64,000 nucleotides of DNA from Planctomycetota bacterium (GTDB lineage: Bacteria > Planctomycetota > UBA8108 > SXIK01), in NCBI GenBank assembly GCA_965223265.1, contig OZ244999.1, positions 1,728,001 to 1,792,000 of the forward strand, read 5' to 3'. Positions 42,719 through 62,262 of this stretch are shown piece by piece. Each line of letters starts with the position of its first letter. Within the stretch, counting starts at the first letter, position 1. The notes beneath the pieces are model-generated. The model made no database searches. It had not been told where the DNA came from and worked only from the letters and a program-made list of their open reading frames with translations. A program made the position numbers and the translations under genes.

Positions 42719-42801
42719 GATGATCTTCTCCTGCCCTCCCTCATCGGATTCGAACAAGTCGCCCCTGAGTGAGAGGATACCAAAACCGAAAGAGCCAATG
42801 C

Positions 42802-46293: not shown

Positions 46294-46661
46294 GACGGCG
46301 GTCCCTTCTTTTCGGTGGGAGTTTCGTTGTCGAAGAATTCGTTCGGGCGTTGAAAGATCCCGATGGCGAGACAGCCGTCTGGACTATGCGCCGTATGTAC
46401 GGAGTCCCGTGCGCGCCAGACAAAGTTGCCGGCTGTGCAGACGCCGTCGCCATCGACCAGACTGCCCTCGAGGACGAACGTCTGCTCGATTCCCGTGTGG
46501 CGGTGGAGCGGGAGCGTCGCCCCAGGGTCGAGCCGAAAAAGAGCGGTAAAGGCGCCGCTTGCTTCGTCACGCCAAAGCATCTTTGTGTGAACACCCGGGA
46601 AGTCGCTTGACTGCCACTCGAGGTTACTCACATCGACGTAGTGAGATGCGTTTTTCGCCAT
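46290..46661 (-). CDS. ChrR-like cupin domain protein
   Basis: PGATLPLHRHTGIEQTFVLEGSL...GNFVWR...HTAHSPDGC. Start placed at ATG 46661. Confidence 0.85.
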   Translation of the reverse strand: MAKNASHYVDVSNLEWQSSDFPGVHTKMLWRDEASGAFTALFRLDPGATLPLHRHTGIEQTFVLEGSLVDGDGVCTAGNFVWRARDSVHTAHSPDGCLAIGIFQRPNEFFDNETPTEKKGPPS

Positions 46662-46982
46662 AGCGGTCTGTAGAAGATATGACCAAGGAACCAAACTCGA
46701 GGATAAATCAAGTCTATGTCGCCGGCGGCTGGAACGAAAGAGCGCGAGTCGAGGGCTTGTCGAAAAGTCAGCAAGTTCGTCGGCGTTTCGGCGCCCGCGT
46801 CTCGAGGTCAATGACCCGTCTCTGCCCTGCATCCATACCCCTGCCGCTTCTCTGCCTGATCTTCGTTGGCTTCTGATGAAAGATCTCAAGAAGAGTTGAA
46901 CAAAAGGAAACCAAGTCAACGAAGGAAGGCCGTCCAAAGGAGCAAGCACACGCCGTGTGCCGTCCGGTCTGGCACACTCCCA

Positions 46983-47066
46983 CCCCATTGTTGCGAAAGA
47001 GAAGCACTTCAAGACCGTGCGCGATGCGATTGCGACTGCGATTACGTGGGGCGTATCTGACTCCGC
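46983..47066 (+). repeat. Dispersed intergenic repeat copy (core + hexamer arm + ATCTGACTCCG)
   Basis: CCCCATTGTTGCGAAAGAGAAGCACTTCAAGACCGTGCGCGA, followed by GATTGC/GACTGC hexamers and ATCTGACTCCG as at 33125. Confidence 0.8.
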
Positions 47067-47090
47067 CTCTTCGTCATCCCCCCAGGGGCA

Positions 47091-48281
47091 CTACTCTGTG
47101 TCGCCGCGTCCCGGGTCTCGGCGTCCCCGAAGAGACGCTGCGATCGCGTCCCGTGCGACCCGAAACGGTCGTATGGCGTAGTAGAGTGGTTCGAGGGACC
47201 TGGGTAGTTTCACGAACGCACGATCCTTCGCTCCCGGCGCAAACGCCTTTCGAGCCCAGTACTGCGTGGCGTAGATCGTTCGGTAGTAGTAGTAACGAGC
47301 TTTGTCTTTGCTGCCACCGACAAAAACGCGCCGATCAATATCGCTCCGCCACGGACGAGCGATGACGCGCTGGCGGATTTGTTCTGTCGCAATGCGATTT
47401 TTCGGGTCGGAAGCGACGCCCGCCTCAACCTTCTCTGGCAGCTCTGCGTTCAGAAGTCGACTAATGAGGGACAGCGCTAGACTCACGCTTCCACCGTTGG
47501 CCGATTCTTCAACGATACGTTCGATATCGACCTCGGGATGCGCGCGAACCAGCTCCGCAAGGTCACAGATCTTCGCCAAACGGCTGCGCCCTTCCCAATA
47601 CTCCTTGCCGATTTGCACCGAGAGGGAGTCGAGCAAATGGTCGGAGCGTAGATTTCGCACTCGACTGCCGGCGAAAGATTCCTGAACCGCGCCATCCCAC
47701 AGTGTGTCGAACGATATTGCGGCGGCGAGGAACTTAGGTGCGAGCCCTTTGTGTAGATCGACCTTAACCTCGCCGCGCAAGAACGTCTGCTCGTAGTCGT
47801 AGAATCCGACGAGTTTGAACCCTGCGTCGAGAAAGATCGCTGACGCCTTGCGAAAGTCTCGCGGATGAACCAAGAGGTCGAGGTCCCAGCATTGACGGAG
47901 TCCTATATCTCCATAGGTAAGTTGCGCCAGCAGCGGGCCTTTGAACGGGAGAGCGCGGATGCCGTGGCTCGCGAATAGATCAAGTAGCGAGATCAAGTTC
48001 TCTGCCAGAAACTGATTGCGCTCGACGTTGGAACTGTATAGCTCGCTGAGCTTAGTCAGAACCTCGCCCGGAACATCACCCGGGCACGCAGAATTGAGGC
48101 TGTTGTACAAAAGAAGGCTGACACGGTTGCGATCGGCAACTGCGAAGAAGCGTTCCCAGTCAATCCCACTCCTTGCCAGCTCGCGAACCCGCTCCGCTGT
48201 CGACGGAGCCAAATTGCAGCGTGCGGAGCTAAAGAATAGCTCGATCTCGTTCGGTTCGAGTGAGACTGTCGTCTCTGGCAT
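47091..48281 (-). CDS. Nucleotidyltransferase family protein (NTP_transf_5-like)
   Basis: IDWERF N-domain, FKGPLLAQLTYGDIGLRQCWDLDLLV, VDLH, RLAKICDL. ATG 48281 avoids overlap with wzt. Confidence 0.85.
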   Translation of the reverse strand: MPETTVSLEPNEIELFFSSARCNLAPSTAERVRELARSGIDWERFFAVADRNRVSLLLYNSLNSACPGDVPGEVLTKLSELYSSNVERNQFLAENLISLLDLFASHGIRALPFKGPLLAQLTYGDIGLRQCWDLDLLVHPRDFRKASAIFLDAGFKLVGFYDYEQTFLRGEVKVDLHKGLAPKFLAAAISFDTLWDGAVQESFAGSRVRNLRSDHLLDSLSVQIGKEYWEGRSRLAKICDLAELVRAHPEVDIERIVEESANGGSVSLALSLISRLLNAELPEKVEAGVASDPKNRIATEQIRQRVIARPWRSDIDRRVFVGGSKDKARYYYYRTIYATQYWARKAFAPGAKDRAFVKLPRSLEPLYYAIRPFRVARDAIAASLRGRRDPGRGDTE

Positions 48282-48370
48282 GATGATCTCGTCTGCTGCG
48301 CATGTGCACCAAAACCCATGGGACTGAGAAGTGACATTGTCGCCTTGGATGGATTCCGGTATGGGCCGCG

Positions 48371-50755
48371 TCAAGACGTCTGTGGCGACAACAGCGTGGA
48401 CACAAGCTCGGCAGCAGTTGTCGTGCTTTCGTATGTCTCTTGACCAAGTTCGCAGCGGTAACACGGCACCTGCTCAGTCAGCTGAAGCACCCGTGTTTCA
48501 ACATCCGAGCTGGATGATTGCCGCCCATTCGTTGTGCGTGGAACAAAAACGTCAGAGCTCTTCTTCTCCTGGTTGATAGCGAACAGGCCTGAGCGAAGGT
48601 CGTCAGCGGCCACCTCTTTCGAAACGCGCTGGAGTTTCATGCGGCCAGGGCGTCGCGTGATGCTCGGGAACACTATGGCGTGTGCCTTCGCTTGGGTTGC
48701 AGGCTCAACGTCCATGAGATCGTGAAACTGTGCGGGGCTTAGTCCGAATTTTCCGTTGTCCCAAGGTTTTGTTGCGGTGGTGCCCTGGGCGCGCAGCTCG
48801 TCGCGATGCATCCGGAAGTTGTAGCCGCCAGAGACAAGCGGCTCTCGGAGACCAGGGATCAGATCTACCGTTGGCTCGCGTATCGTGACGATCGTCGGCA
48901 TACCCCGAAGCATCGGGGGAGCGGAATCCAGGTCGACGAAGACTCTGTCGTTTGCGATGCAGGACACCCCTGGATGTCGCATCGCGTGGATCAAAAGTGT
49001 CGTCTTGGCGGAGCGTTTAGGGCCGGCAAGCACGACACCTCGGTCTCCGACCGCGAAAGCAGATCCATGGACAAACAGGCCTCCAGCGTCCTGTCCATGG
49101 TTCATTGCGAGTTCTCGAACGACTCGCATGAGCGGTGAACGTGTTTTGCGGTCGAATGATGTGGCGACGATCTCGATATCGCTGGAGTCCCTAAGCAGAT
49201 AAAACACGTTGAAGGACTCATCGAACAGCGCAAGTTCGACCGACGAGTCGTTCCACCGCGGTAGTTGGATCATTTGGCTATCGAGAGAAAATGCGTTCTC
49301 GGTGCCGCCAGCCGGGCCTTGCTTCGCCAGTTGCTCGTGGTGCTTCGGGTCAACGGAGAGCTTCACATGAGCATGGCAGCTCTTCTCCGCAACGAGCTGA
49401 AAGTGAGGGCACAGAAACTCCTCGAGCCAGACAAGATGAGACTCGTACGCGCTTGATACCTGAATTCGCAGATCCCCGTAGGCGAAATGCCTATCGGCTG
49501 CAACAGCCCCATCGGCAGCGAGCGTCGATTCGTCTACATCTCGAGTGTTCCAACTATGTTCTATCAGGCAGTCCCCGATCCCAGCCGGTGGCAAGCGCCC
49601 CGTCAAGTAGAAGTCTCCTCGTTCGACTTGGAACCTTGCCGCATTCGCCATCTCGCAAACTACTCGAGACCCGATCCGGCATTCTATGTTGAGCCTGTAG
49701 AAACCAGGCATTAGCGGAAGTTTTTCGAACTCGCACAAGAACTCACCTCGAGACCCGGAAGCATCTATGGACTCTTCGACAGCGCTGCTGTCGCAGATGG
49801 CAACCGGTTGGTGGTTTTGGTTCAGGATCGTCAGGCTTACGTGGGCGCCTTCGACTCGCGGTCTGTCAGTGGCGTGAAAACCCAGGGCAATCACACCGCG
49901 CTCGCCTGTCGTGAGCGCGGAGACTTCCTCGTGCTTCTGGTTTAGAAGGCGGGTGTGAGTCAGTCGAAACCCGTTCGCGTCGGCATCCGACTGAGCTTCA
50001 AACGAGGTTAAGCTTGACTGCTTGCGGTTCGAAAACGTCGTTTCGAGGTACGTCTGCACGACTTCGCCAGCTTTCCCTTCAGCCTTGACTTGGCCGCGAT
50101 CCATCCAGAGTGCACGTTTGCAGTGCGTCGTGATGACTGACATGTTGTGTCCGACGAAAATGACCGTGCGGCCCTGGTGGGTGATCTCATCCATCTTGCG
50201 AATGCACTTGTCGCGAAACGCAGCATCGCCGACCGCAAGAACTTCGTCGACCAAAAGTATTTCTTGATCGAGGTGCGCTGCTACGGCGAAACCGAGTCTG
50301 ATCTTCATGCCGCTCGAGTAGCGCTTGATCGGTGTGTCCAAGAACTCCTCGACGTCGGAGTAATCGACGATCTCGTCGAACTTTTCTTTGATTTCGGATC
50401 GCGGCATGCCGAGCAAGGCGCCATTGAGGAAAATGTTCTCGCGGCCGGTCAGTTCAGGGTGAAATCCAGTTCCGGCTTGCAGCAGCGAGCCGACGCGCCC
50501 GAACATTTCGGCACGTCCACTGTTGGGTCGCGTGATCCTGCCGAGAACTTTTAACAGCGTGCTCTTTCCCGCGCCGTTCGATCCGACGATGCCGAACATC
50601 TCGCCGTGTTCAACTTCGAAGGAGACGTCCTTGAGCGCCCAAAAGTAGTCTCTGCCTTTCCCAAGCCGCAGGGCGGCGATCAAGCTGCCGTGCTGATCCA
50701 CCCCCTTACGGTAGCGCTTGCTGATCTTGCGGACGCTGACGGCTATACGACTCAT
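48371..50755 (-). CDS. wzt: Polysaccharide ABC exporter ATPase (Wzt) with Wzt C-terminal domain fused to an HPr-kinase-like P-loop domain
   Basis: FWALKDVSF, GSNGAGKST, GFHPELTGRENI, YSSGM, DEVLAVGD. Wzt_C-like LPLMPGFY. From about aa 420: VHGSAF...GPKRSAKTT...ANDRVFV. Confidence 0.88.
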   Translation of the reverse strand: MSRIAVSVRKISKRYRKGVDQHGSLIAALRLGKGRDYFWALKDVSFEVEHGEMFGIVGSNGAGKSTLLKVLGRITRPNSGRAEMFGRVGSLLQAGTGFHPELTGRENIFLNGALLGMPRSEIKEKFDEIVDYSDVEEFLDTPIKRYSSGMKIRLGFAVAAHLDQEILLVDEVLAVGDAAFRDKCIRKMDEITHQGRTVIFVGHNMSVITTHCKRALWMDRGQVKAEGKAGEVVQTYLETTFSNRKQSSLTSFEAQSDADANGFRLTHTRLLNQKHEEVSALTTGERGVIALGFHATDRPRVEGAHVSLTILNQNHQPVAICDSSAVEESIDASGSRGEFLCEFEKLPLMPGFYRLNIECRIGSRVVCEMANAARFQVERGDFYLTGRLPPAGIGDCLIEHSWNTRDVDESTLAADGAVAADRHFAYGDLRIQVSSAYESHLVWLEEFLCPHFQLVAEKSCHAHVKLSVDPKHHEQLAKQGPAGGTENAFSLDSQMIQLPRWNDSSVELALFDESFNVFYLLRDSSDIEIVATSFDRKTRSPLMRVVRELAMNHGQDAGGLFVHGSAFAVGDRGVVLAGPKRSAKTTLLIHAMRHPGVSCIANDRVFVDLDSAPPMLRGMPTIVTIREPTVDLIPGLREPLVSGGYNFRMHRDELRAQGTTATKPWDNGKFGLSPAQFHDLMDVEPATQAKAHAIVFPSITRRPGRMKLQRVSKEVAADDLRSGLFAINQEKKSSDVFVPRTTNGRQSSSSDVETRVLQLTEQVPCYRCELGQETYESTTTAAELVSTLLSPQTS

Positions 50756-50758
50756 GGA

Positions 50759-51643
50759 CTACACCAGATCAGCAATGGAATGTTCGGTGCGGCGAAAAAC
50801 CATTGCGCTGACGGCGACGAGAATACCAATCACGAGCGCCGTGACCCCGAGCCTTAGGTCGGGCGCTCTGCCGCTACCGACGAGCGCCCATCGAAATCCT
50901 TCGATGACGCCGTTCATGGGGTTGAGTTCATAAAGCCAGAGCAGTTGCTTGGGTATCTTGTCCTGGAGGAGACTTGCAGAATAGACAACTGGAGTACCGT
51001 AAAACCAAAGCTTGATGAAGTAGCCTCGAAAGTAGCTCACATCGCGGAAGCGCGCGTAGAGAGCTGCTAGCAGAAGACCAACCACAGTCGAAAGCGCCAT
51101 CGTCATGGCCAACAGGAACGGGAGCGCGAGTATTCGTGATGTGAGTGGAAAATCGTACCAAAGGACAAGCGCGATCAAAATGCCGAACGATAGCGTGAAA
51201 TCGATGAGAGCCGTGCCGATTTCAGCCAGCGGGAGAAGAAGACGGGGGAAGTAGATCCTCGTAATCATCCCTTGATAGCGAACAAAACACTCAGTACTGC
51301 GTGTCACCCCGTCATCGAAGAGCTGCCAGGGAAGTAGAGCCGAGTAGACGAAGATGGGATAAGGGACGCCACCGTCGGTTGGGAGCCCAGCCACACCGCC
51401 CAAAATGACACTGAAGAGGACCATTCGTAGAAACGGGACCAAGACAAACCAGAACGGCCCGAGAGCTGTCTGTCGATAGCGCATTTTGACGTTACGCCAC
51501 AGGAGCACCCATAGCACGTGCCGGGAGTGAAACAGTTCCCGCAAGTCGAGTGCTTGCCAAAAAGTCGCCGGTTCAATGACGATCGTCGGATGCGCGTCTT
51601 GCCTAGGTGCGGTCGAAGAGCTCGTCGTATCTGCGCGTGTCAT
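50759..51643 (-). CDS. wzm: Polysaccharide ABC-2 exporter permease (Wzm)
   Basis: RYRQTALGPFW, IYFPR, RFRDV, YGTPVVY, LNPMNGVIEGFRW. Multiple TM helices. Lies 3 bp upstream of wzt. Confidence 0.92.
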   Translation of the reverse strand: MTRADTTSSSTAPRQDAHPTIVIEPATFWQALDLRELFHSRHVLWVLLWRNVKMRYRQTALGPFWFVLVPFLRMVLFSVILGGVAGLPTDGGVPYPIFVYSALLPWQLFDDGVTRSTECFVRYQGMITRIYFPRLLLPLAEIGTALIDFTLSFGILIALVLWYDFPLTSRILALPFLLAMTMALSTVVGLLLAALYARFRDVSYFRGYFIKLWFYGTPVVYSASLLQDKIPKQLLWLYELNPMNGVIEGFRWALVGSGRAPDLRLGVTALVIGILVAVSAMVFRRTEHSIADLV

Positions 51644-51739
51644 GTAACGATAGCCACCGCATTCCTAGTGGGTTTGACCGTTGACGGTCGTAGGTCTTTT
51701 TCTGAGCAGTCGAGCGGCCGCGATGAGCCTGACAACACT

Positions 51740-52435
51740 TCACGTCGTGGAGGGGTGTGTGATCGCAAAGCGGAGATCTTGATTGTCAACAGGTGTCTTC
51801 CAAGTGCTGCGGACCTCTGGAAACTCGAGCAAGCGAATTTCCAGTCGAGTGGCGATCCAGCCGAGCGACCAATCGAAGCTTGCGAGTCCGACTCGCTGCG
51901 CGCGCTGAGCGAGGATCTCCCAGTATTGTGACTCCGTCCGTCGCGCAGAGGGGGTCGCGAAGTCTGCAAGGTTGAGAAGTCCGGAGTCGAAGATCTCGTT
52001 GGCAACATCGATGGTGAACCCCATGCATCCGCCCTGGATGGATGTGCAACCGGCGGAGTTCTGAAGCGTTCCGAAGTGTGAGTTGCGTCTAGGTAGAAAC
52101 TTGAAGCGTCTATGCACCGCCGAGTCTGGGTCGAGTTTGAAGAGAAAATCCGTTGGTTCAAGTCGAAAGAGTTCGAACATTCTCGCAACCGCACGAGCAC
52201 CGTTCTCCACAGTGAAGACTCGATCCTCGGGGAAATACTCGACGTTGTACCGCGAGACGAAGGAGGCGTGTCGTGGATCGTCGTCGCCATCTGAGCGCAC
52301 GATGACTCTCGAGTCGGGAAAGCTGCTGCGTAGGCGGCGGAGACAAAGGTCGGCCGCCTCGTGGTCGCGGTAGAGCTGCAGATAGAACGTGATGTCGGAA
52401 TCACAGTAAGACGTGTTGTCGCAGTTTTCGTTCAT
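51740..52435 (-). CDS. Putative GT-A fold glycosyltransferase
   Basis: FYLQLYRD...LRRLR...VIVRSDG, DxD-type FKLDPD, IQGGCMG. Start placed at ATG 52435 (ORF extends to 52534). Confidence 0.6.
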   Translation of the reverse strand: MNENCDNTSYCDSDITFYLQLYRDHEAADLCLRRLRSSFPDSRVIVRSDGDDDPRHASFVSRYNVEYFPEDRVFTVENGARAVARMFELFRLEPTDFLFKLDPDSAVHRRFKFLPRRNSHFGTLQNSAGCTSIQGGCMGFTIDVANEIFDSGLLNLADFATPSARRTESQYWEILAQRAQRVGLASFDWSLGWIATRLEIRLLEFPEVRSTWKTPVDNQDLRFAITHPSTT

Positions 52436-52611
52436 GACCAGCAGAGCGCTGAGCAGCCGATTGACCTCACCTGGTGTTTTGACCCAGCGCGGCACACAGG
52501 CGTCCAATTCTCGGAGATTCCCTCTCGGCGTCAATAGCGCTTTCGGCCAGCTGCGGCTGTGCTCGGTACCCCAATTTTACCGAAGATCTACGCTGAATGT
52601 CTCTCCGTCTA

Positions 52612-52785
52612 ACAGCCTGCCTGAAAAAGTCATTCGGCTGAGGAACCGGCCTCTTCACGCCCGGATCAGCCGCGGCGAGCCTCGCCGTGTATGTCTTGTA
52701 GAAGAGGGCTCGGAGCGTTTGCCGCGGCCGATCTGGACGCGAAGCGACCAGTTTTCAGCTCGAAGCATTTTTTCAGGTGGGCTGC
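52612..52785. mobile_element. 174-bp palindromic MITE-like element flanked by TA
   Basis: Terminal inverted repeats ACAGCCTGCCTGAAAAA / TTTTTCAGGTGGGCTGC, with TA at 52610-11 and 52786-87. Inner arms 52661-52678 and 52719-52736 also pair. Confidence 0.65.
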
Positions 52786-52965
52786 TAAGTGTCATTCACC
52801 GAGCTGTGGAGGCGCCTTGCGACGCTCTACCCTCCAAAGAGTGTCGCCACGGCGACGAAGTTCGGGCGGGTGACTTTTCGGGGTGGACTGCGTATCGTTG
52901 AGAGCGAGTTGGGCTGATGCTGCGGAGAAACGCCGACGCGGTAGCGATTCATAGAGGGAGAATTC

Positions 52966-54888
52966 ATGTGCGGAGTCGTAGGGTACCTCCTGACGTCAGA
53001 CAGGGTCGGCAACGTTGAGCCGCTCGTCGCCGCTCTGCGCGCGATGAAACATCGCGGTCCTGACGACGAGGGACTCACGCTGATCGACCCCCTCTCTGGG
53101 AGGGCGACAGACTTTATCGGTGATTCTTCGGCGTCTGGCGTCGCTGTCTCACAGCATGTCGGTGAGGCACGTGAGACGCGACATCGCCTGGCTTTGGGGC
53201 ATCGGCGGTTCTCCCTCGTCGACCTGGGACCGCTCGCCCACCAGCCATTCTGGACAGAGGATCGCTCCGTTTGTGTCGCGTTCAACGGTGAGATCTACAA
53301 CTACGTCGAGTTGCGCTCGGAGCTCGAAGGAGAAGGGTTTAGGTTTCGTACGACATCGGACACTGAAGTCCTTGCTGTCGCCTACCAAGCTTGGGGCGTC
53401 GATTGCTTCTCACGCTTCAACGGGTTTTGGGCTTTGACGCTCTATGACGCGAAGCGTCGAAGTTTGCTACTTGCTCGAGATCGTCTTGGTAAGGCTCCGC
53501 TCTATTTCACGTCTATAGGCGGTAATCTCTACTGGGCATCTGAGATCAAGGGGCTTGTTGCGCTCGTCGGTGGGTCGATGTTCACCGTCAGCGAGCAAGC
53601 TGTGATCGATTTCGTGACGTGGCGCCGCCGTGATCTATTTCACAAAACGTTCTACAACGAGATCGATTCGTTTCCTCGCGCCGCTTACGCGTGGGTGAAG
53701 CCCGACGGGAGTTTCGAAGCCGTGGAGTTTTGGCGCCTTCCCGAGCAGCGCCTGTCACCGCGCGCGATCTCGACGTTTGAGGCCAGTGAGCGGCTGCGCG
53801 AGCTCGTCACCGACGCGACCCGACTTCGTCTGCGCGCGGATGTTCCTGTCTCGGTGCAGGTCAGCGGTGGCATGGACTCGTCGAGCTTGCTGGCGATCGC
53901 TGCGGGAATCGCGCCAGGTGTCGCTGCCTACACGGTGACGTTTCCAGGAGCGGAGGTTGACGAGGAGCCATTCGCGCGAGCCGTGGCCGAGCGCTGCGGT
54001 GAGTCGGTTGAGTACCACGTCCTGGATCCACCGGCAGATGACCTCCTGCGCCGTGCCGACGAGTACGTCCATCTGATGGGAGAGCCGTTTCACTCGCCCA
54101 ACCAATTCACGAACCATCAGATTTGGTCGACGATGACGGCGCATGGGATCAGGGCGGTACTTTACGGCGCCGGCGGCGACGAGCTGTTTGCGGGGTATCG
54201 TGGGAGATACTTTCAACCCTACCTAAGCCATCTGCTGAAGTCCGGGCATCCTTTGCGTTGTCTGCGTGAGTTCTTCGCGTGCAGCGAGCTCCAACCGGGT
54301 GAGTTCGGATTCGACTATCTGCGGCGAGCTCGCCAACTGCTACGTCGACACCGTCTCTATCCCGTGCCAACCGAATTGGACCCGTTTCGAGCTCCGACAG
54401 AGGCGACGGCGCGCGCCGGACCGTCAAACGATATTCGCCAGTTGATGACTGACTTGATGACCGACTGGCAGATGAATTACTGGCTGCGCATTGACAATCA
54501 AAACAGCATGGGGGTGCCGCTCGAGTTGCGCCTTCCTTTGCTGGATTTTCGGGTCGTCGAGTTCGCGTTCGAGTTGCCGCTTGATTACCTCATGCGAGAC
54601 GGTTGGATGAAGTGGGTTCTACGGAACGCGATGGAAGACCTCCTTCCTCCCTCGGTCACGTGGCGTCGGAAAAAAGCAGGGTTTCCGTTTCCTCTGCGCA
54701 GCTGGCTTGAGCGCTATGAGGAGCGCCTTGCTGAATTGCTTGAGGGGCTTGATTGCCCATACATCGACATGAACGCGTGGCATCTTGGTTTTTCTGATTT
54801 GGCGCAGAGGAGCCCAGATCACCTTTGGTGTGTCACATCGCTTGGGCTTTGGTGGAAGCGATGTGTGCAGGGCGAGCAGCTCTGCTGA
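52966..54888 (+). CDS. asnB: Asparagine synthase (glutamine-hydrolysing)-family amidotransferase
   Basis: MCG N-terminal nucleophile, HRGPD, FNGEIYNY, SDTEV, ARDRLGKAPL, SGGMDSS, GAGGDELFAGY, ELRLPLLD. Confidence 0.92.
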   Translation: MCGVVGYLLTSDRVGNVEPLVAALRAMKHRGPDDEGLTLIDPLSGRATDFIGDSSASGVAVSQHVGEARETRHRLALGHRRFSLVDLGPLAHQPFWTEDRSVCVAFNGEIYNYVELRSELEGEGFRFRTTSDTEVLAVAYQAWGVDCFSRFNGFWALTLYDAKRRSLLLARDRLGKAPLYFTSIGGNLYWASEIKGLVALVGGSMFTVSEQAVIDFVTWRRRDLFHKTFYNEIDSFPRAAYAWVKPDGSFEAVEFWRLPEQRLSPRAISTFEASERLRELVTDATRLRLRADVPVSVQVSGGMDSSSLLAIAAGIAPGVAAYTVTFPGAEVDEEPFARAVAERCGESVEYHVLDPPADDLLRRADEYVHLMGEPFHSPNQFTNHQIWSTMTAHGIRAVLYGAGGDELFAGYRGRYFQPYLSHLLKSGHPLRCLREFFACSELQPGEFGFDYLRRARQLLRRHRLYPVPTELDPFRAPTEATARAGPSNDIRQLMTDLMTDWQMNYWLRIDNQNSMGVPLELRLPLLDFRVVEFAFELPLDYLMRDGWMKWVLRNAMEDLLPPSVTWRRKKAGFPFPLRSWLERYEERLAELLEGLDCPYIDMNAWHLGFSDLAQRSPDHLWCVTSLGLWWKRCVQGEQLC

Positions 54889-54934
54889 GCTTGATGAGAG
54901 CGCGTGCGAACGGTAGCGTTGAGATCGACCGGTC

Positions 54935-56161
54935 GTGAGTTCCCCTGGTCTGCTCCGAGAGAGTTCCAGCATGAGTTCCCCGAACATCCAGCGCTCTTCA
55001 CTTGAAACTCGACGTCGTCATGACGAAACGTTCGTCACCTTTGAGTACGAGGGGTTGCGCGTGCGCATGACGAGCCCAGTCGAGGCTCCTCTGGACTGGC
55101 TAAGGGAGTTTCTATCTCCTTTTTTTGACATCACCACTTCGAAGACAAATTCAGAGGTGACCTGGGACTACGAGGTGCGATTGGTGATCAGCCGCCAGCG
55201 CCATGAACAGTATGGGCGGCTCGGGGATCCGTGCGGCGAGGTCGACTGTTTTGCGGTCGACGCCCACGTGATTCGATTGCCGTGGTGGAGTCTGAGTCAC
55301 GCGCAGAGCGTTGTTTTCGACACGGCGGCACGTGTGTTTTACGTCCTTCACCCTGAAGAGTCGTTGATCGAGGTGGTGGCGGATGGCGACAGCATGCGCG
55401 TGCGCACACGAACAATGCGCGTGGTGCGTGAAGTTGCCATGCACCACGGAGTTTGTCGGGGTGGATTCTTCATCCACGCTTCGGCATTCGATGTTCATGG
55501 CCGAAGTGTGATGATCTCGGCTCCGACCAACGGCGGCAAGACGACTTTGTTGACGCATGCCCTCAGCCATCCCGAGACGCGATTTCTTTCGAACGATCGA
55601 GTCTTCGTCCGATTCGATGGTGATAGCGTCATCTTTCGGGGGATGCCTGCGGTCGTCTCCATGCGCGAAGGGATGCTAAATTTTTTCCCTGATCTACGTG
55701 ACAAAGTGAGGCAGAGTCGCTTCTTTTACTGCACTCGCGATGACGAATTGTTCGAGTGGATTCCAGACCGCCTGCGTCCCGACGATCGCGGGCGTTATCT
55801 GGTCGCGCCGCATCAGTTCTGTGCGCTGCTGGGGACTGCCGCCGTGGCTCAGGCGCGAGCTGCAGCCATCGTCTTCCCCCGAATCGTTGAAGGGTCCGAT
55901 GTTTTTCGTTTAACTCGAATCGATCCGGACGTGGCTTCGACCCTCCTGAGCGCGGCGTTGTTTCATACCAACGAGTGGCGTAAGAACAACGAGATTTTTT
56001 CGAGAGTCCGTCCGGACTGCGAACAACCGGCTATGGATGTGAGAGCCCTTGGTCGTCGCCTCGTGGCTCGAGTTCCATGCTATAGCTGCGATCTGAGTCG
56101 TGACGCCTACCGTCTCGACGGCGGCGCGAGCGATTTTGTGCGAGCGGTATTGGAGACGTGA
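54935..56161 (+). CDS. HPr-kinase-like P-loop kinase
   Basis: FIHASAF...SAPTNGGKTT...FLSNDRVFV. Colinear with the C-terminal domain of Wzt. The start may be ATG 54971. Confidence 0.75.
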   Translation: MSSPGLLRESSSMSSPNIQRSSLETRRRHDETFVTFEYEGLRVRMTSPVEAPLDWLREFLSPFFDITTSKTNSEVTWDYEVRLVISRQRHEQYGRLGDPCGEVDCFAVDAHVIRLPWWSLSHAQSVVFDTAARVFYVLHPEESLIEVVADGDSMRVRTRTMRVVREVAMHHGVCRGGFFIHASAFDVHGRSVMISAPTNGGKTTLLTHALSHPETRFLSNDRVFVRFDGDSVIFRGMPAVVSMREGMLNFFPDLRDKVRQSRFFYCTRDDELFEWIPDRLRPDDRGRYLVAPHQFCALLGTAAVAQARAAAIVFPRIVEGSDVFRLTRIDPDVASTLLSAALFHTNEWRKNNEIFSRVRPDCEQPAMDVRALGRRLVARVPCYSCDLSRDAYRLDGGASDFVRAVLET

Positions 56162-57015
56162 AACAGTCGCAGGACGGTGATCCAAGAGGCTCCGAAGACA
56201 CCGGCGCACAGGTCCGGGAGAAGTCGATCTCCGCAATGCTTCGCGTCAAGGACGAAGGGCAGTTCCTCTATGCCGCGGTGCGCTCGGTGATCGATTGCGT
56301 CGACGAAGTCGTCTTGGTTGACAATATGAGCACCGACGAGACTCCACGGACCATAGAGCGGTTGGGTTCTGAGTTCCCAGGAAGAATTCGAAGCTACGCG
56401 TATCCATTCGAAATCCGGCGTGTCGGGCGAGAGCATTCTGAGCTCGCCACATCGACGGAAGGCACCAGCTCGCCACACCTCTCTTCAAATTACTACAATT
56501 GGTGCCTCGCGCGATGCTCGTGCGATTACACCTTGAAATGGGACGGCGACATGATCGCGCTGCCGACATTTCACGATGCCCTTGCGGCATGGCGTAAATC
56601 ACAGGACGAGGTGATGGTCGTGCACGGCGCGAACGTTCATCGAAATTTAAAAAACCTCATGCAGGCAAAGTCCGCTGAACGACAACCGTTTCTCGAGGCG
56701 TCGGACACTTCGAGCTTTCCTCTCTGGGCGCTCTCCCTCACCTATGACTACCCAGAACCGAGACTTTTTCCGCGGCGTGTTGCATCGTATGACTCGCACC
56801 TTGGTTGGACACAATGTCTCGACATACCCAAGGCTGTTGAACGCCTCGCTCACCGCGTCGAGAGTCCTTGCTTCTTACACATGAAGTTCTGCAAACGCGA
56901 TCCGTTTAGCAACTACACCAAGGAACTGGCCGCTGCGATCGCGGCCAATATCGATGTCGGTCCGCCTCTGCCAGAGGGGTGGAGGCAGATACTCGAGGAA
57001 TGGGGCATCGCCTGA
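56158..57015 (+). CDS. GT-A glycosyltransferase (GT2/CgtA-like)
   Basis: ISAMLRVKDE, VVLVDNMSTDET, YYNWCL, KWDGD. GTGA overlap with the kinase gene (translational coupling). Confidence 0.8.
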   Translation: MKQSQDGDPRGSEDTGAQVREKSISAMLRVKDEGQFLYAAVRSVIDCVDEVVLVDNMSTDETPRTIERLGSEFPGRIRSYAYPFEIRRVGREHSELATSTEGTSSPHLSSNYYNWCLARCSCDYTLKWDGDMIALPTFHDALAAWRKSQDEVMVVHGANVHRNLKNLMQAKSAERQPFLEASDTSSFPLWALSLTYDYPEPRLFPRRVASYDSHLGWTQCLDIPKAVERLAHRVESPCFLHMKFCKRDPFSNYTKELAAAIAANIDVGPPLPEGWRQILEEWGIA

Positions 57016-57041
57016 ACGCCTGCGATGAAGAGTGTTGGCGG

Positions 57042-59000
57042 CTATTTCGTGAAAGTGCCCCGGATCACGTCCCAGAGACGAGAGATGCTTCGCTCCATGG
57101 AATAGTTCTCCGAGACGTGTTCTCGTCCTCTCTTTCCCATCTGCTGCGCGAGCTGGGGATCTTTGATGAGCTTTGCCATGTGATTCGCCATGGAGCCGAC
57201 GTCTCTTTCGTCGACAAGGAATCCCGATTCTCCGTCAAGGACAGCTTCTTTGATGCCTGCGTGCCGGGTGGCGACGACTGGCACAGCACAGGCGCCTGCC
57301 TCAAGCACCGATACCGGAGTCCCCTCAGAGTTGCCGTCGAGCGCTGTAATCGAATGCTGCACAAACAGTCTCGCACCGCGAAGTGCGGTGATGATCTCTG
57401 GGTGTGCGGCTCGGCCACAGATCGTGACTTTGTCGGACACGTCGAGATGTTCGGCGAGCCTCACGAACGTCTCCATGATCGGGCCGTCGCCGAACATCGT
57501 CAGCGTCGCCTCGGGGCACGACTCGAGAAGGCGATGGAACGCGAGGAGCGTGAGGTAGGGCGCTTTCTTGTCCACGAAGCGGCCGATCGCGACGCAGCGA
57601 GCTGGATTCTCCGCGGGATTCGTGGCGCGGAATTGCGAGATATCAACACCGCACGAATTGACATGAACTTTCTCAGCTGGCGCTCCAAGACGGATGAGCT
57701 GCTCGCGCATCTCACTTGATACTGCTATGAACGCTGCCGCGGTTCGAAACAGATCCGCGTACTCTTCTCTGTGTGTCTCGAGGGTTGCGGCTGCGTACGC
57801 GTCGTAACCGTGGAAGTGTACGATCAGTGGAACATCTTCGGCGCAGCAGGCGTCTGCGACCGTGACAGCTACCGTTCCGAATTCCGCCAAAACGGCTTCG
57901 ACCTGTTCTCGTTTGAGGTAGCGGCGGAGCGCCCGAGTGCCGAACGCGCTTCGCCAGGCGAATTCCAGTGCTAAGGCGCGCCCGGCACGTTCGGCCATCG
58001 TGAGCAAGGGCAAACCCGTTTCCTCGGAGAGTCCATTGCGGCAGTTGACGACCTTGACTCGTGCGGGGAGCTCTTCGATGTGAGCGAGTACGAATGTTTG
58101 CGTATACTCAAACGGCACCGCTCTCGCCACGCAAATGACTGGTCGTCTCGTCGGTTCCGGCTGCGGATCGTCGAGCGATCGGGCTGTCGCGGTCTCGGGC
58201 TTTCGCGGAAGGTGGTGCTCCCACACAGACTGCTGGAGTCGCTTGAGTTGCTTGGCCCTCCCAGCCGTGATGAGATCGAACGCGCCCAGGCCCGCCAGCC
58301 AAGGTGGAGCCGAACCTGACATGAGGCGCGCACGGTAGGAAGTCGACAAACTGATTTCGTCGAGATTGTACGCCCATTTATCGCGCACAACGTGGTTGAT
58401 CTGGGCGTCGATCGGAGACCGACAATCGTCTGGGACCCAGAGCATGAGGACCCGGTCGGGGTGTTGTTGTGCGAACTCGTGAATTCGGTCTCCGTACAAT
58501 CGCCAGCGCTTGAAAGCTCCGTGCGCTCGCTGCAGCGGAGTCCAATTTGAAGTCTTGATCTTGACGCGTCGGAGAATCGACCACGCGACGGTGGCTGGGT
58601 CGCGCAGGACGAAAACCCAACGGGCATTAGGAAAGAGACGACTCCACGCCCGCAGGCGAAGGACGAGCCCCGGGTCTCTCAGACCCCAAGCGTTCTGCTC
58701 CCGTGACTTTTTCTGCAGAAGCTCAAGCAACTGACGTTCTTCGTCCGGGCTGAACTCGACATCTTCCGGCACTCGCGCGTGCAGCCACGTGTGTGCGTCT
58801 GAGATTCCGGTCCCCTTCTGAAGCCACTGGCTGACGTCCCTGTCCACAAATTGACCGCCGACTTCGTTGTGCCCGATCGGAGCCAAGTTGTCGCCGAAGC
58901 GCAGTCCAGCGTCGGAGAAAGCACGGGCCACGACAGACACGCCCGAGGCAGGCATGCCGGCAATGAGAAGTGGAGAGGCGTGCTCAACAGTCCGATTCAA
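57042..59000 (-). CDS. Sulfotransferase-like domain fused to a GT4 (WcaL-like) glycosyltransferase
   Basis: N-terminal half: LLIAGMPASGVS, WGLRDP, FVLRDP..VAWS. C-terminal half: HFHGYD, IGRFVDKKAP, EGTPVSVLEA, VVATRHAGIKE. Confidence 0.82.
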   Translation of the reverse strand: MNRTVEHASPLLIAGMPASGVSVVARAFSDAGLRFGDNLAPIGHNEVGGQFVDRDVSQWLQKGTGISDAHTWLHARVPEDVEFSPDEERQLLELLQKKSREQNAWGLRDPGLVLRLRAWSRLFPNARWVFVLRDPATVAWSILRRVKIKTSNWTPLQRAHGAFKRWRLYGDRIHEFAQQHPDRVLMLWVPDDCRSPIDAQINHVVRDKWAYNLDEISLSTSYRARLMSGSAPPWLAGLGAFDLITAGRAKQLKRLQQSVWEHHLPRKPETATARSLDDPQPEPTRRPVICVARAVPFEYTQTFVLAHIEELPARVKVVNCRNGLSEETGLPLLTMAERAGRALALEFAWRSAFGTRALRRYLKREQVEAVLAEFGTVAVTVADACCAEDVPLIVHFHGYDAYAAATLETHREEYADLFRTAAAFIAVSSEMREQLIRLGAPAEKVHVNSCGVDISQFRATNPAENPARCVAIGRFVDKKAPYLTLLAFHRLLESCPEATLTMFGDGPIMETFVRLAEHLDVSDKVTICGRAAHPEIITALRGARLFVQHSITALDGNSEGTPVSVLEAGACAVPVVATRHAGIKEAVLDGESGFLVDERDVGSMANHMAKLIKDPQLAQQMGKRGREHVSENYSMERSISRLWDVIRGTFTK

Positions 59001-59284
59001 GATTTGTCCTCAAAGTGGCTGCAGAAAGGTTCGAGATTATTCCTCAACCTTACAGCTCGATCAAGCATGGTGAAGGAGGTTCGTCGACACTCAGCGGCGC
59101 TTGGCGGACGGTACGTTTGATGTCGACAAACTTCCGGACCGACCGGTAGAGGACTCACGGGAGCGAGTCGACGTTATGTCGCCTGTTGCCACCCTGTTCG
59201 ATTCTCGTTAGGATTCGAGGCCAGTTGGCGGAGAACGAGCGCGCGAGTCGGTTCTGCAGTTCGCTGAGCGCGGTGAGGTGTTTT

Positions 59285-60718
59285 GTGGCTCAGATCACCC
59301 TTTTGGCGATCGCATGCGTGATTGGTATTGCGGTTGCGTATGTGCCGTCCCTTCGTCGACGCGTCGCGGCGTTCTTCGCCGCGAAATCGCATCCGGTCAA
59401 CTTAGCGATCTTTCGCATCGCCTTCTTCTGGCGTTTCTATGAAAAAGTCGACCCGGATCTAACTGAAGTCTACAGCTCGTTCCCTGACGAGCTGAGAGTT
59501 CCGATCGCCGGACTCGGGCCCTTAAACACGCTGCTCCCGCTCTCGACTGAGCTGGCGACCGTGAGTTGCTTCCTGTTGCAGGTGGCGTGCGTGTTTGCTG
59601 CGGTCGGTTTCTTCTCGCGCGCCTCTGCGTTGGTTGCGACCGTCGTTGGATTCTACGTTTTGGGGGTGCCGCAGCTCTTTGGCAAAGTCAATCACGTCCA
59701 CTACTACGTGTGGTTTGCGGCCATCCTGGCTGCGAGCCGCTCGGGTGACGCGCTGTCGGTCGACGCGATTTTGTCACGCTGGCGACATCCGGAGCGATTT
59801 CCCCTTCGTGAATCAACGATCTATGGCCTGCCGATTCGTGTGGTGTGGTTGTTGATTGGGATCATCTACTTCTTTCCGGGATTCTGGAAGCTGTGGTCCG
59901 GCGGGTTGGAATGGGCGTTCTCCGAGAATCTTAAGTGGATGCTCTGGCGCAAGTGGATCGATGGGCTCGGCTGGCCTCCGCCGTTTCGGATCGACAACTA
60001 CCCTCTTCTCTACCAAGGCGCTGCTGCGGCGGTCATCGTCTTTGAACTCGCCTTTGTGTTCTTGCTCTTCTTTCCGCGTTTGCGCTTGATCGCGGTGGCT
60101 GGCGGGTTGGTTTTTCATCACATGACGCGCGTCTTGATGGCTATCTATTTCAAAACGCTTGTCTACTGTTACGTCGTATTCATTGATTGGTACGGCATCT
60201 ATTCATGGCTTCGACGACGTTTGTCGCGTCGGCAAGAACCTGCTTTTGCAGAGGACTCGCATTCGCCACCGTGCTCTCGGCTCCTCGTGATGGTGGCTTC
60301 TTTTTTCGTCTTCGGGAATATGTTGTTCGGCGCACTCCACCTGGCGCGCGCTTGGCCCCTCGCCTGCTTCCCGACGTTTTCCGCCCTGGCATCGCCGTCG
60401 CGTACGAGCCTCAGGGTCAAGCTGGACTTCGGTAGCGGTGAAACCGAGTTGCTGGCGAACCGCCAGTTCGGTCAGCATCTACCTATCGAACGATTCACTG
60501 TCCAGGTGCGCTACATCCTCACTCGGCCGGATGCTATGGAACGCGATCGGCTGCTCGAAGCGCTTTGGTCGGTTCTGCGCGAACGCGACCCGCGCTACTT
60601 TCGTGCTTCACGCATTGAGTTCTACGAAGTGGTCGAAACGACCTCTCCGGAGAGATGGGAAGAGAACCCATTGAGCGAGAAGCTCATTATGGAGGTTGAA
60701 TCGCCTCCACCTCCGTGA
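59285..60718 (+). CDS. HTTM-domain integral membrane protein (vitamin-K-dependent carboxylase-like membrane fold)
   Basis: LAIFRIAF, GKVNH, ALSVDA, IYFFPGFWKL, FELAF...FH, WPLACFPTFS. Multiple TMs. GTG 59285 follows GAGGTG (ORF extends to 59186). Confidence 0.7.
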   Translation: MAQITLLAIACVIGIAVAYVPSLRRRVAAFFAAKSHPVNLAIFRIAFFWRFYEKVDPDLTEVYSSFPDELRVPIAGLGPLNTLLPLSTELATVSCFLLQVACVFAAVGFFSRASALVATVVGFYVLGVPQLFGKVNHVHYYVWFAAILAASRSGDALSVDAILSRWRHPERFPLRESTIYGLPIRVVWLLIGIIYFFPGFWKLWSGGLEWAFSENLKWMLWRKWIDGLGWPPPFRIDNYPLLYQGAAAAVIVFELAFVFLLFFPRLRLIAVAGGLVFHHMTRVLMAIYFKTLVYCYVVFIDWYGIYSWLRRRLSRRQEPAFAEDSHSPPCSRLLVMVASFFVFGNMLFGALHLARAWPLACFPTFSALASPSRTSLRVKLDFGSGETELLANRQFGQHLPIERFTVQVRYILTRPDAMERDRLLEALWSVLRERDPRYFRASRIEFYEVVETTSPERWEENPLSEKLIMEVESPPPP

Positions 60719-60744
60719 CGCCGGTTGCCGCGCCCGTGACCTCG

Positions 60745-62262
60745 TTACGCCAGGATTTCCTGAATCGGCGTGCCGAAGTCTTGCTCAAGGCGTTTGTGCT
60801 CCGGGATCTCCATACGTCGAGCGTCGAGGCCGAGTAGACGCATGAGTGTTGCATGTACGTCGGTGACGTAGTGCGCGTCTTCAACCGCATGAAAGCCGAT
60901 TTCATCGGTGGCGCCGTGGACGACTCCCCCCTTGATGCCGGCGCCCGCCATCCAAATGGAAAAGCCGTAAGGGTGATGGTCCCGTCCGTTGCCATGTTGC
61001 GAACCGGGTGTGCGACCGAATTCGGTAGCGAACACGACGATCGTTTCGTTGAAGAGACCACGCGCCTTAAGGTCTTTCAGCAGCCCAGCGATGGGCTGAT
61101 CGACCTGCGCCGCGAGCTTCGTGTGGTTCGCCTTGAGATTGGAGTGTGCGTCCCAGGCTCCGGCGGCGCCGGGACCGTGCATGATCTGGATGAAACGTAC
61201 GCCGCGCTCGACGCACCGCCGCGCCGCGAGCAGTTGCATGCCGAACGGCCGAGTGATGTCGCTATCGAGGCCGTAAAGGCTTCGTGTGGATGCCGGCTCG
61301 CTGTCGAAGTTGATCGCGGCGGGCACCGCAGTTTGCATTCGGAAGGCGAGCTCATACGCCTTGATGCGCGCCGCCAATTCTGCGTCGTTGGGATTTCGCA
61401 ATGCGGTCAGACGATTGAGGCGTCCGACCAAGGAAAACTCCGTTTCTTGCTCCTCGCGTGAGAGATCGAGCTCAGGTCTGGCGTAAGCTAAAGGATTCTC
61501 TGGGTCGACCTTCAAAGTAACAGCATCATACGCCGGACCTAGATAGTGACCGTCGCGAACGTCGAAATAACGCGGTCCCATGTTGATGAACTGCGGCAGG
61601 TTCTCATTCAGCGTGCCGAGGCCGTAATTGATCCAGGCGCCGATCGTCGGCACGCGCGGGTCGAGCATATGGCGGCCCGAGTGAAATTGAATCTGTGCGC
61701 CGTGGTTGTCGTCGGTCGTCCACATCGACCGTACGATCGCAATGTCGTCGACGCAGCTGCCAAGGTACGGAAAGAAGTCGCTCACCTCGATGCCGCTCTG
61801 ACCGTAGCGCCTGAATTCTGTTTGTAGCGGATAGAGTTTGTTCCGCTGCTGCCCGTTGGCGTCGTTGACGACGACGACACGCACTCGCTTGAGAAGCTCG
61901 GGGTTTTGGACAGATTGAAACGGGGTCTCCGAGATCTTCATGCCGGCGTATTTCGTCAGAGCTGGTTTCGGATCGAAGCTCTCCATGTGGCTGACTCCAC
62001 CACGCATGAAAAGCCAGATCACGCTCTTCGCCTTGGGCGCGAAGTGTGGCTCGCCTGTGGGGAGATGTGAGGCGGCCCCAGCGTTCTCGGTGCTGAATGC
62101 ATCGCGCTGCAGCATAGCGTTCAGCGCGACTCCCGCGAAGCCAAGGCTAAAACTCCCGAGAAAACCGCGACGCGAGCAGCCGCACGTCCTCCGCGTCACT
62201 TCCGGTGCGTCAGACTCTGGCGTTGTCGGCTGTTCGCGCTGCATGGATTGACCAAGCCTCAT
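60745..62262 (-). CDS. DUF1501 domain protein
   Basis: [55 protein letters not shown]. Confidence 0.92.

Follow-up and report, generated by a model that had tools for sequence, protein, structure and literature searches.

The stretch of DNA analysed here (the window, 64,000 nucleotides) comprises bases 1,728,001-1,792,000 of contig OZ244999.1, the single 9.18-Mb contig that makes up the genome of a Planctomycetota bacterium. At positions 47091-60718 it carries a 13.6-kb island of nine genes, among them a Wzm/Wzt exporter, a kinase of the PEPCK/HprK fold fused to the Wzt ATPase, a second stand-alone kinase, and a nucleotidyltransferase of the NTP_transf_5 family. The interpretation that we favour, with about even confidence, is that this island is an ATP-binding cassette (ABC) transporter-dependent locus for a surface glycan or glycolipid, in which a phosphate-based decoration would be placed on a sugar and not on a peptide. 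The features of the island are the following:

47091..48464, minus strand: NTP_transf_5 (Pol-beta-type) nucleotidyltransferase (PF14907); the likely ATG start is at 48281 (396 aa), not at 48464
48371..50755, minus strand: Wzt ATPase (residues 1-250), probable Wzt_C (262-378) and PEPCK/HprK-fold kinase (424-789) in one protein of 794 aa (Pfam, NCBIfam)
50759..51643, minus strand: Wzm ABC-2 permease (PF01061, E 3e-11)
51740..52534, minus strand: glycosyltransferase of GT-A fold, from a family that no Pfam model covers; it probably starts at 52435
52609..52792, no strand: dispersed repeat of about 180 bp in the intergenic region between diverging genes; it does not belong to the system
52966..54888, plus strand: AsnB-type glutamine-hydrolysing amidotransferase (TIGR01536), with Cys2 kept
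54935..56161, plus strand: stand-alone PEPCK/HprK-fold P-loop kinase, 408 aa (PF27840 in newer Pfam; AF2, Foldseek, VIA)
56158..57015, plus strand: GT2-like GT-A glycosyltransferase (PF00535, E 7e-5), whose start overlaps the kinase stop
57042..59000, minus strand: fusion of a sulfotransferase-like domain (residues 10-186, Sulfotransfer_3) and a GT4 glycosyltransferase (342-641, Glycos_transf_1)
59186..60718, plus strand: HTTM-domain polytopic membrane protein (PF05090, 38.4 bits, cut-off 27.7), of uncertain membership

All nine genes were confirmed as real. Nine genes of these kinds had been proposed from the letters of the window and its open reading frames (ORFs) (hereafter, the sequence-only reading), and this inventory is borne out by Pfam and NCBIfam and, for the glycosyltransferase (GT) without a Pfam model, by fold. 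The Wzt-HprK fusion that it described is also real; nevertheless, its two-part layout had to be amended, given that a probable Wzt_C domain lies between the ATPase and the kinase. The translational coupling proposed for the second kinase and the following GT-A gene was found as well: the TGA stop of the kinase overlaps the GTG start of the GT2-like gene as GTGA.

The fused gene is confirmed by independent assemblies. Contigs from runs X1 and X2, which come from one sample that is possibly the source of this DNA, cover it entirely with 0 differences, and a contig from X4, a second sample of the same study, covers 48862-49829, across the junction between Wzt_C and the kinase, again with 0 differences. 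The ABC_tran match (PF00005) spans residues 41-172 of the protein. When the kinase part was compared with 5.8 billion protein clusters, considering proteins of 436-1390 aa, 10 matches were obtained, and the sole Wzt fusion among them was that of the window; seven of the nine others carry PF01636 and are therefore APH-kinase fusions. A literature search for Wzt paired with HprK found no paper. The best NCBIfam neighbours of the island Wzm and Wzt are the teichoic-acid and galactan Wzt/Wzm models, under their equivalog cut-offs; the permease, with at least four hydrophobic segments, matches the galactan Wzm/RfbD model at E 3e-21, also under the cut-off. Membrane segments were detected in Wzm and the HTTM protein only, the tailoring enzymes having neither membrane nor signal segments. 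A second Wzm/Wzt pair, ordinary and without a kinase, is located elsewhere in the genome, at G000:C1:8955720-8957329 (Wzt ATPase 67.5% identical, Wzm 38%).

The two kinases of the window are paralogues with 35% identity (E 1e-63 to 1e-70), and no third copy was found in the genome. Fold searches were needed because sequence searches of the PDB with the kinase returned P-loop-level or non-significant matches only. The AF2 model of the stand-alone kinase (pLDDT 87.6) was matched by Foldseek to PEPCK (E 4e-10) and to HprK/P (E 5e-7). With VIA, residues 22-408 align to ATP-PEPCK (Z 14.1, 293 residues aligned, root-mean-square deviation 5.2), and residues 175-408 align to the catalytic domain of HprK/P (Z 11.9, 138 aligned, deviation 3.1). 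Since the whole kinase aligns to PEPCK, and to HprK/P only over the C-terminal half, the N-terminal domain is predicted to be PEPCK-like and not a winged-helix domain of the PqqD type, i.e., a recognition element (RRE) of peptides that are made on the ribosome and modified after translation (RiPPs). The two-domain fold is accompanied by conserved motifs (the P-loop GKT, H and N-D-R), and 23 residues do not vary between phyla, among them four Arg and two Trp located beyond the P-loop; the fused kinase domain keeps 21 of the 23, the two losses being a change of GK to AK in the P-loop and one of L to M.

Matches of the kinase to family models are weak: HprK_rel_B at E 2e-6 (27 bits, cut-off 200), HprK_rel_A, and FomB at E 5e-4. 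Neither kinase matches the HPr kinase/phosphorylase models (TIGR00679, Hpr_kinase_C) or the lasso-type HprK models at E<=0.01. The homologues carry PF27840, and all 164 matches are unnamed or annotated as 'hypothetical'; a profile search of 1.84 billion representatives gave 787 proteins at E<=1e-30, a number that rises to 2,611 at E<=1e-10. Judged from these comparisons of sequence, the kinases belong to a large, uncharacterised family that is separate from the lasso-type HprK models. The sequence-only reading had regarded the island as equipped with a lasso-type tailoring kit; this label does not really fit, the kinase being of a separate family without an RRE partner.

The genomic company of the kinase was obtained from 185,579 species genomes, scanned with a pattern derived from a 9-sequence alignment. 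Among the 68 stretches recovered, 44 encode a kinase relative, and these 44 loci, of about ten phyla, are distributed in Binatia, Rokubacteria/Methylomirabilota, Gemmatimonadota, Acidobacteriota, Halieaceae, Planctomycetota, Cyanobacteriota, Chloroflexota, Myxococcota and a Dadabacteria genome. Their six frames were scanned with profiles seeded from Pfam-checked exemplars; because 14 of these loci do not reach 12 kb, all neighbour counts are lower bounds. An APH-type kinase lies beside the kinase in 31 loci, NTP_transf_5 in 26 and a GT of any kind in 27 (GT2 in 15, GT4 in 11 and GT1 in 8). Some ABC component is present in 19, Wzm in 6 and Wzt_C in 2. In the loci L020 and L028 the genes for a GT-A-like enzyme, Wzm, Wzt with Wzt_C, NTP_transf_5, APH and the kinase all run in one direction, and shorter blocks are found in L030 (Wzm-Wzt-NTP_transf_5-kinase) and L017 (Wzm-Wzt-kinase-GT2). 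The kinase family is thus linked across phyla with GTs and ABC exporters, an outcome in favour of the sequence-only reading.

Other loci resemble the island in gene content. L045, from Gemmatimonadota, contains the kinase, a GT2-like gene, the sulfotransferase-GT4 fusion, NTP_transf_5, ABC, APH and GT4 genes; L084 contains NTP_transf_5, ABC, GT2-like, sulfotransferase-GT4, the Pfam-less GT-A and the kinase; and L089 contains GT4, GT90, ABC, APH, the Pfam-less GT-A, the kinase, NTP_transf_5, GT61 and a sulfotransferase. Of the nine gene types in the island, six are thus found side by side again in L084, and five in L045. Among 39 metagenome loci of at least 6 kb that encode the Pfam-less GT-A, two (L084 and L089) also have the kinase and NTP_transf_5; in 31 of the 39 this gene merely adjoins a large GT2. 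The sequence-only reading had counted AsnB, the HTTM protein and the sulfotransferase among the parts of the system. They are not conserved with it: AsnB is present in one of the 44 loci (the count comes from L039 alone, genome G425, unpublished), a sulfotransferase in one, and HTTM in none of these and in none of the 39 GT-A loci. These three are local additions outside the conserved cassette, with an uncertain role.

Several side observations were made in the related loci. The APH-type and the PEPCK/HprK-fold kinases are repeatedly fused in proteins of 670-1118 aa (P0123-P0130; L036:7760-11116; L011:9098-11134), an arrangement that suggests two consecutive phosphorylation steps, and the APH proteins of the relatives give weak Choline_kinase matches. 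GT90- and GT61-like genes and two DUF6817/HD-like genes also occur in related cassettes (L089:3190-4242, L089:14255-15337 and L084:23-1515); the GT90 and GT61 families are best known from the glycosylation of proteins and glycans in eukaryotes. Small 'families' that seemed conserved among these loci were discarded as antisense shadows of real genes.

Peptide machinery was searched for in the island and in the whole genome. The search of the island yielded neither an RRE nor a protease nor a precursor, in agreement with the sequence-only reading, and no peptidase, PqqD or ABC_membrane family is present among the nine proteins. The genome likewise holds no cognate lasso set, which that reading had set down as its counter-case: there is no cyclase, no B2 protein and no nearby RRE. 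None of 10 genome-wide matches to the lasso cyclase model NF033535 passes the cut-off of 525 bits, the best reaching 220.7, and Transglut_core3 (PF13471) has a single match that exceeds the cut-off, a generic transglutaminase of 544 aa adjoining queA at 6.25 Mb. Pfam PqqD has two matches in the genome, at 3.742 Mb and a weak one at 6.73 Mb; a hidden Markov model (HMM) built from 20 PqqD ORFs retrieves the one at 3.742 Mb only, a search that very divergent RREs could escape. The tail motif of tethered-leader PqqD proteins has no match among the genome ORFs of at least 40 aa. The loose pattern [YW]xxPx[LVIFA] occurs three times in the island, never in a free-standing ORF with a start, and no convincing precursor ORF with a YxxPxL leader was seen there, although sequence alone can miss short precursors. 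Small ORFs in 52435-52966, considered as precursors, were rejected, as they lie inside the dispersed repeat or have no motifs. The only clear PqqD of the genome, a 151-aa ORF 2 Mb from the island (L001, G000:C1:3740658-3743852), follows a GT4 and immediately precedes a radical-SAM-like gene, and an ORF of 63 aa lies just upstream; it forms a separate RiPP-like locus.

In the 36 genomes that contain 38 of the 44 kinase loci, PqqD was found in 29 at E<=0.1 and in 24 over the cut-off. Nevertheless, PqqD lies within 10 kb of the kinase in one of the 44 loci (L020, at 7 kb, with the 20-sequence HMM; a single-seed jackhmmer search gave the same result). Four PqqD-linked sister cassettes (L167:9905-16719, L168:6929-11435, L169:4353-10194 and L170:9935-19998) come from the same genomes as the kinase family studied here. 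The kinase relative encoded in L167-L169 is distant (E 1e-8 to 1e-9 against the family profile) and has weak matches to HprK_rel_A/B and HPr(Ser) kinase.

By analogy with characterised systems, the substrate, the chemistry, the product of NTP_transf_5 and a possible cap can be pictured as follows. The soluble GTs (two GT-A and one GT4) would assemble the chain at the cytoplasmic face, and Wzm/Wzt would export it. Before export the conserved phosphate-decoration module would act on the chain: the PEPCK/HprK-fold kinases may add phosphate to a hydroxyl group of a sugar or to a phosphate already present, and NTP_transf_5 would then extend this phosphate into a phosphodiester-linked group. A precedent on a peptide is given by PsmK and PsmN, which are reported to place a phosphate on a serine hydroxyl and then a hexose on that phosphate (PMC8498205). 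The mark would probably be made at the exporter, because one kinase is fused directly behind the carbohydrate-binding domain of Wzt. It could be a chain-end cap that is read by Wzt_C, as in the WbdD/Wzt system of E. coli O9a, where a kinase is reported to write the chain-end mark (PMC3482155) and domains of the Wzt_C type read the chain-end modification (PMC9445017). AsnB, by amidation, and the sulfotransferase-like domain might add local decorations.

A bolder extension, which we regard as speculative and improbable, is that the Wzt-fused kinase writes a terminal phosphate as an export mark for the adjacent domain, so that writer, reader and pump would be a single polypeptide, i.e., a self-capping exporter. 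In this extension, the kinase/APH/NTP_transf_5 cassette would be a widespread and undescribed phosphodiester decoration pathway of uncultured soil phyla, the glycan counterpart of the tailoring pair known from lasso and linear polyphosphorylated peptide (LPP) clusters.

Until now, work on the kinase/nucleotidyltransferase pairs of this superfamily has dealt with them as peptide tailoring enzymes only, and here the same logic of the pair appears in a large family without a peptide-recognition partner, linked to GTs and glycan exporters. If a glycan is the substrate, surface polymers of bacteria would be marked or capped by a chemistry that is new, and the coupling between chain completion and export would be new as well. 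The presence of the island on a single complete contig makes the hypothesis directly testable, provided that the strain is in culture.

Several observations weigh against the glycan interpretation. The APH partner that is so common elsewhere is missing from the island. Both kinases have P-loop deviations, GK to AK in the fused one and G196A with K198T in the stand-alone one. PF14524 (Wzt_C) reaches 29.9 bits in the fusion, just under the local Pfam cut-off of 30.4; the domain is listed in the precomputed annotation of a newer Pfam, and the Wzt_C of the L020 and L028 orthologues exceeds the cut-off. In the Pfam scan no nucleotide-sugar genes and no priming glycosyltransferase were found in the island, and no genome-wide search for a priming enzyme was made. 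PqqD proteins with a leader-like tail are encoded 7 kb from the kinase in L020 and 12.3 kb from it in L014, where the PqqD heads a same-strand array. In L167-L169, PqqD proteins with a C-terminal YxxPxL...LLALDP tail adjoin the distant kinase relative, followed by GT2, GT4 and NTP_transf_5. All known experimental work on this enzyme pair deals with peptides (PMC8498205, PMC13381572); the latter paper also describes LPP clusters embedded in capsule or polysaccharide loci and a deletion of the NTP transferase without visible effect. The glycan interpretation is favoured and yet unproven, because the known biochemistry is all on peptides and the PqqD-linked sister cassettes are equally rich in GTs, so that GT content alone does not prove a glycan substrate. 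The sequence-only reading had taken a glycan, or a small substituent of it, as the target of the kinases and the nucleotidyltransferase; the linkage to GTs and exporters and the lack of a peptide set agree with this, whereas the substrate itself is something we infer, and the sister cassettes call for caution.

Some of these observations also speak for a different proposal, namely that the substrate is a ribosomal peptide or protein and the island an RRE-independent relative of the LPP and pseudomycoidin clusters, in which the kinases would act on Ser, NTP_transf_5 and the GTs would glycosylate, and Wzm/Wzt would export. Besides the peptide biochemistry, the capsule setting of LPP clusters and the L167-L169 cassettes, the joining of a PqqD-tail protein with this kinase family in one cluster (L170/L014 and L020) speaks for it, and HTTM is homologous to a peptide-modifying carboxylase. 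It is nevertheless unlikely in our view: the island has no PqqD, and the one clear PqqD of the genome is 2 Mb away beside a radical-SAM gene; no peptidase was found among the nine proteins, nor any leader-like tail motif in the genome ORFs of at least 40 aa; PqqD within 10 kb of the kinase is confined to one locus in 44; and the N-terminal domain of the kinase is predicted to be PEPCK-like. A product of another class, a small glycoside or glycolipid that is phosphorylated, nucleotidylated or amidated somewhat in the manner of an aminoglycoside or moenomycin, would make the kinases and NTP_transf_5 biosynthetic or self-resistance enzymes. This is compatible with the presence of FomB, a phosphonate monophosphate kinase, among the best NCBIfam neighbours (E 5e-4; E 1.5e-4 for L020), with the resemblance of the APH partner to small-molecule kinases (homoserine kinase, thiamine kinase, APH(3')) and of the whole kinase to PEPCK, itself a small-molecule kinase, with the MsbA-type half-transporters that replace Wzm/Wzt in many relatives, and with the position of PF14907 beside PEP mutase in one phosphonate cluster family (PMC8942020). 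On the other hand, Wzm/Wzt with Wzt_C is typical of long lipid-linked glycans (PMC9445017), and the island has no core scaffold genes (polyketide synthase, non-ribosomal peptide synthetase, cyclitol or aminotransferase sets), its content being dominated by at least three GTs; a small product seems quite unlikely.

Two further proposals do not involve a modified product of this kind. The kinase domains could be regulators similar to HprK/P, which would gate synthesis and export either by phosphorylating a protein, e.g., a GT or the transporter, or by sensing a metabolite. The match of the catalytic half to HprK/P, a regulatory protein kinase (Z 11.9), the fusion to a transporter ATPase, which would suit gating, and the atypical P-loops of both copies are in line with it. 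However, the tight and repeated linkage of the kinase to APH, often by fusion, together with its linkage to NTP_transf_5, suits a pathway better than a switch, and the 23 cross-phylum invariant residues, with four Arg and two Trp beyond the P-loop, likewise argue in the other direction, so that regulation is a highly doubtful explanation. Finally, the nine genes could be chance neighbours from unrelated modules, without a common product. They form four transcription units and not one, the repeat lies in their middle, and conservation with the rest does not extend to AsnB and HTTM; yet the recurrence of six and five gene types in L084 and L045, the absence of the stretch from 20 relatives that have both flanks, and the lower G+C throughout make a chance assembly extremely improbable.

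As for the remaining genes, NTP_transf_5 matches PF14907 with 169.7 bits (cut-off 31.2, E 1e-49), and its G-P...D-L-D motif is visible. A short paralogue of 157 aa (L009, G000:C1:1628801-1629178) has nothing to do with the island; models of AbiEii toxin and of aminoglycoside adenylyltransferase match it too. The first GT-A has no Pfam or NCBIfam match, and a sequence search of the PDB gave P-loop-level or non-significant matches at most; none of its 45 homologues is named, and D102-x-D104 is invariant. Its AF2 model (pLDDT 95.5) was placed by Foldseek in the GT-A fold, with GT6 and GT31 enzymes (E about 5e-8, probability 1.0). The GT-A assignment of the sequence-only reading was thus upheld; the ORF on which it relied, 51640-52404, turned out to be a nonsense-frame translation and was replaced by 51740-52534 on the minus strand. 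AsnB, whose N-terminus is MCGV, scores 359.3 bits against TIGR01536 (cut-off 267.1) and 225 bits against the lasso cyclase model, below its cut-off of 525; the claim that it keeps the glutaminase Cys is correct. The GT2-like enzyme has GT2/CgtA neighbours in the atlas and homologues in L045 and L084. The sulfotransferase-GT4 fusion, which is also found in these two loci, scores 34.2 bits for Sulfotransfer_3 (cut-off 27) and 112.5 bits for Glycos_transf_1; by eye, its 5' motif for binding 3'-phosphoadenosine 5'-phosphosulfate appears atypical. The HTTM protein has eight hydrophobic segments.

The setting of the island was also considered. Its neighbours in the window are DUF1501, PSD1-5 and planctomycete cytochrome genes, a gene content that points to a planctomycete; the segments that bracket it (41393-47012 and 60745-63980) contain a ChrR-cupin gene and two gene pairs typical of planctomycetes, DUF1552 with PSD/PSCyt and DUF1501 with PSD1. 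In a comparison of DNA, 20 relatives have matches to the DUF1501 and PSD genes of the flanks and, within the island, to the Wzt ATPase region and no other part. The kinase is present in 7 of 401 sampled Planctomycetota genomes, counting the source genome, two of these being 85-aa P-loop matches only, and in neither of two genomes of the same family. A quick tree joins the two kinases of the window as sisters (SH-aLRT 89, under the mark of 95), apart from other planctomycete copies. The G+C content of the island is 0.56-0.59, as compared with 0.60-0.64 in the upstream DNA. Taken together, the absence in relatives, the patchy occurrence, the tree and the G+C dip fit a horizontal acquisition of the island, followed by or including an old duplication of the kinase. 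The repeat at 52609-52792 has 257 further blastn high-scoring pairs in the same genome with 80-90% identity; in reverse orientation it aligns to its own sequence at about 72%, and it has the look of a miniature inverted-repeat transposable element or a repetitive extragenic palindrome. A promoter and terminator scan stayed at chance level (6 promoter-like matches versus 4.2 expected, 18 terminator-like versus 15.6), Rfam gave no matches in 46000-61500, and PADLOC gave only generic ABC ATPase matches on the island.

With respect to known systems, the island may resemble PsmK/PsmN of pseudomycoidin, PadeK of paeninodin and LppK/LppN of the LPP clusters in the pairing of an HprK-superfamily kinase with an uncharacterised NTP transferase, often inside polysaccharide loci. 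In contrast to these clusters, it has no precursor, RRE, leader peptidase or cyclase and its exporter is Wzm/Wzt, not MsbA-like; moreover, its kinase belongs to the two-domain PF27840, has APH as its usual partner, and is set apart by family models. LPP clusters are marked by a SpI-like peptidase, a discrete RRE, an exporter similar to MsbA and a precursor whose N-terminal part has a YxxPxVL motif (PMC13381572); the peptidase, RRE and exporter are absent among the nine island proteins. AsnB, with its intact Cys2 glutaminase in a glycan locus, can be likened to the WbpS-type amidotransferases of O-antigen loci by its TIGR01536 family and its context only. The LicA/LicC/LicD logic, in which a kinase and a nucleotidyltransferase precede transfer onto a glycan, is similar in its first two activities, and the relatives carry a choline-kinase-like APH; on the other hand, NTP_transf_5 is another nucleotidyltransferase family, the window has no APH, and no LicC or LicD family match was found. 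WbdD of E. coli O9a differs in combining a eukaryotic-type kinase fold with a methyltransferase, whereas the island kinase has the PEPCK/HprK fold, is fused to Wzt and has a Pol-beta-type partner; a capping role would be assigned to it by analogy. Nevertheless, the wzm-wzt-wbdD arrangement shares with the island a Wzm/Wzt exporter with a C-terminal carbohydrate-binding domain (a probable one in the island) and a kinase at the exporter, and in relatives of the island the kinases directly follow wzm-wzt.

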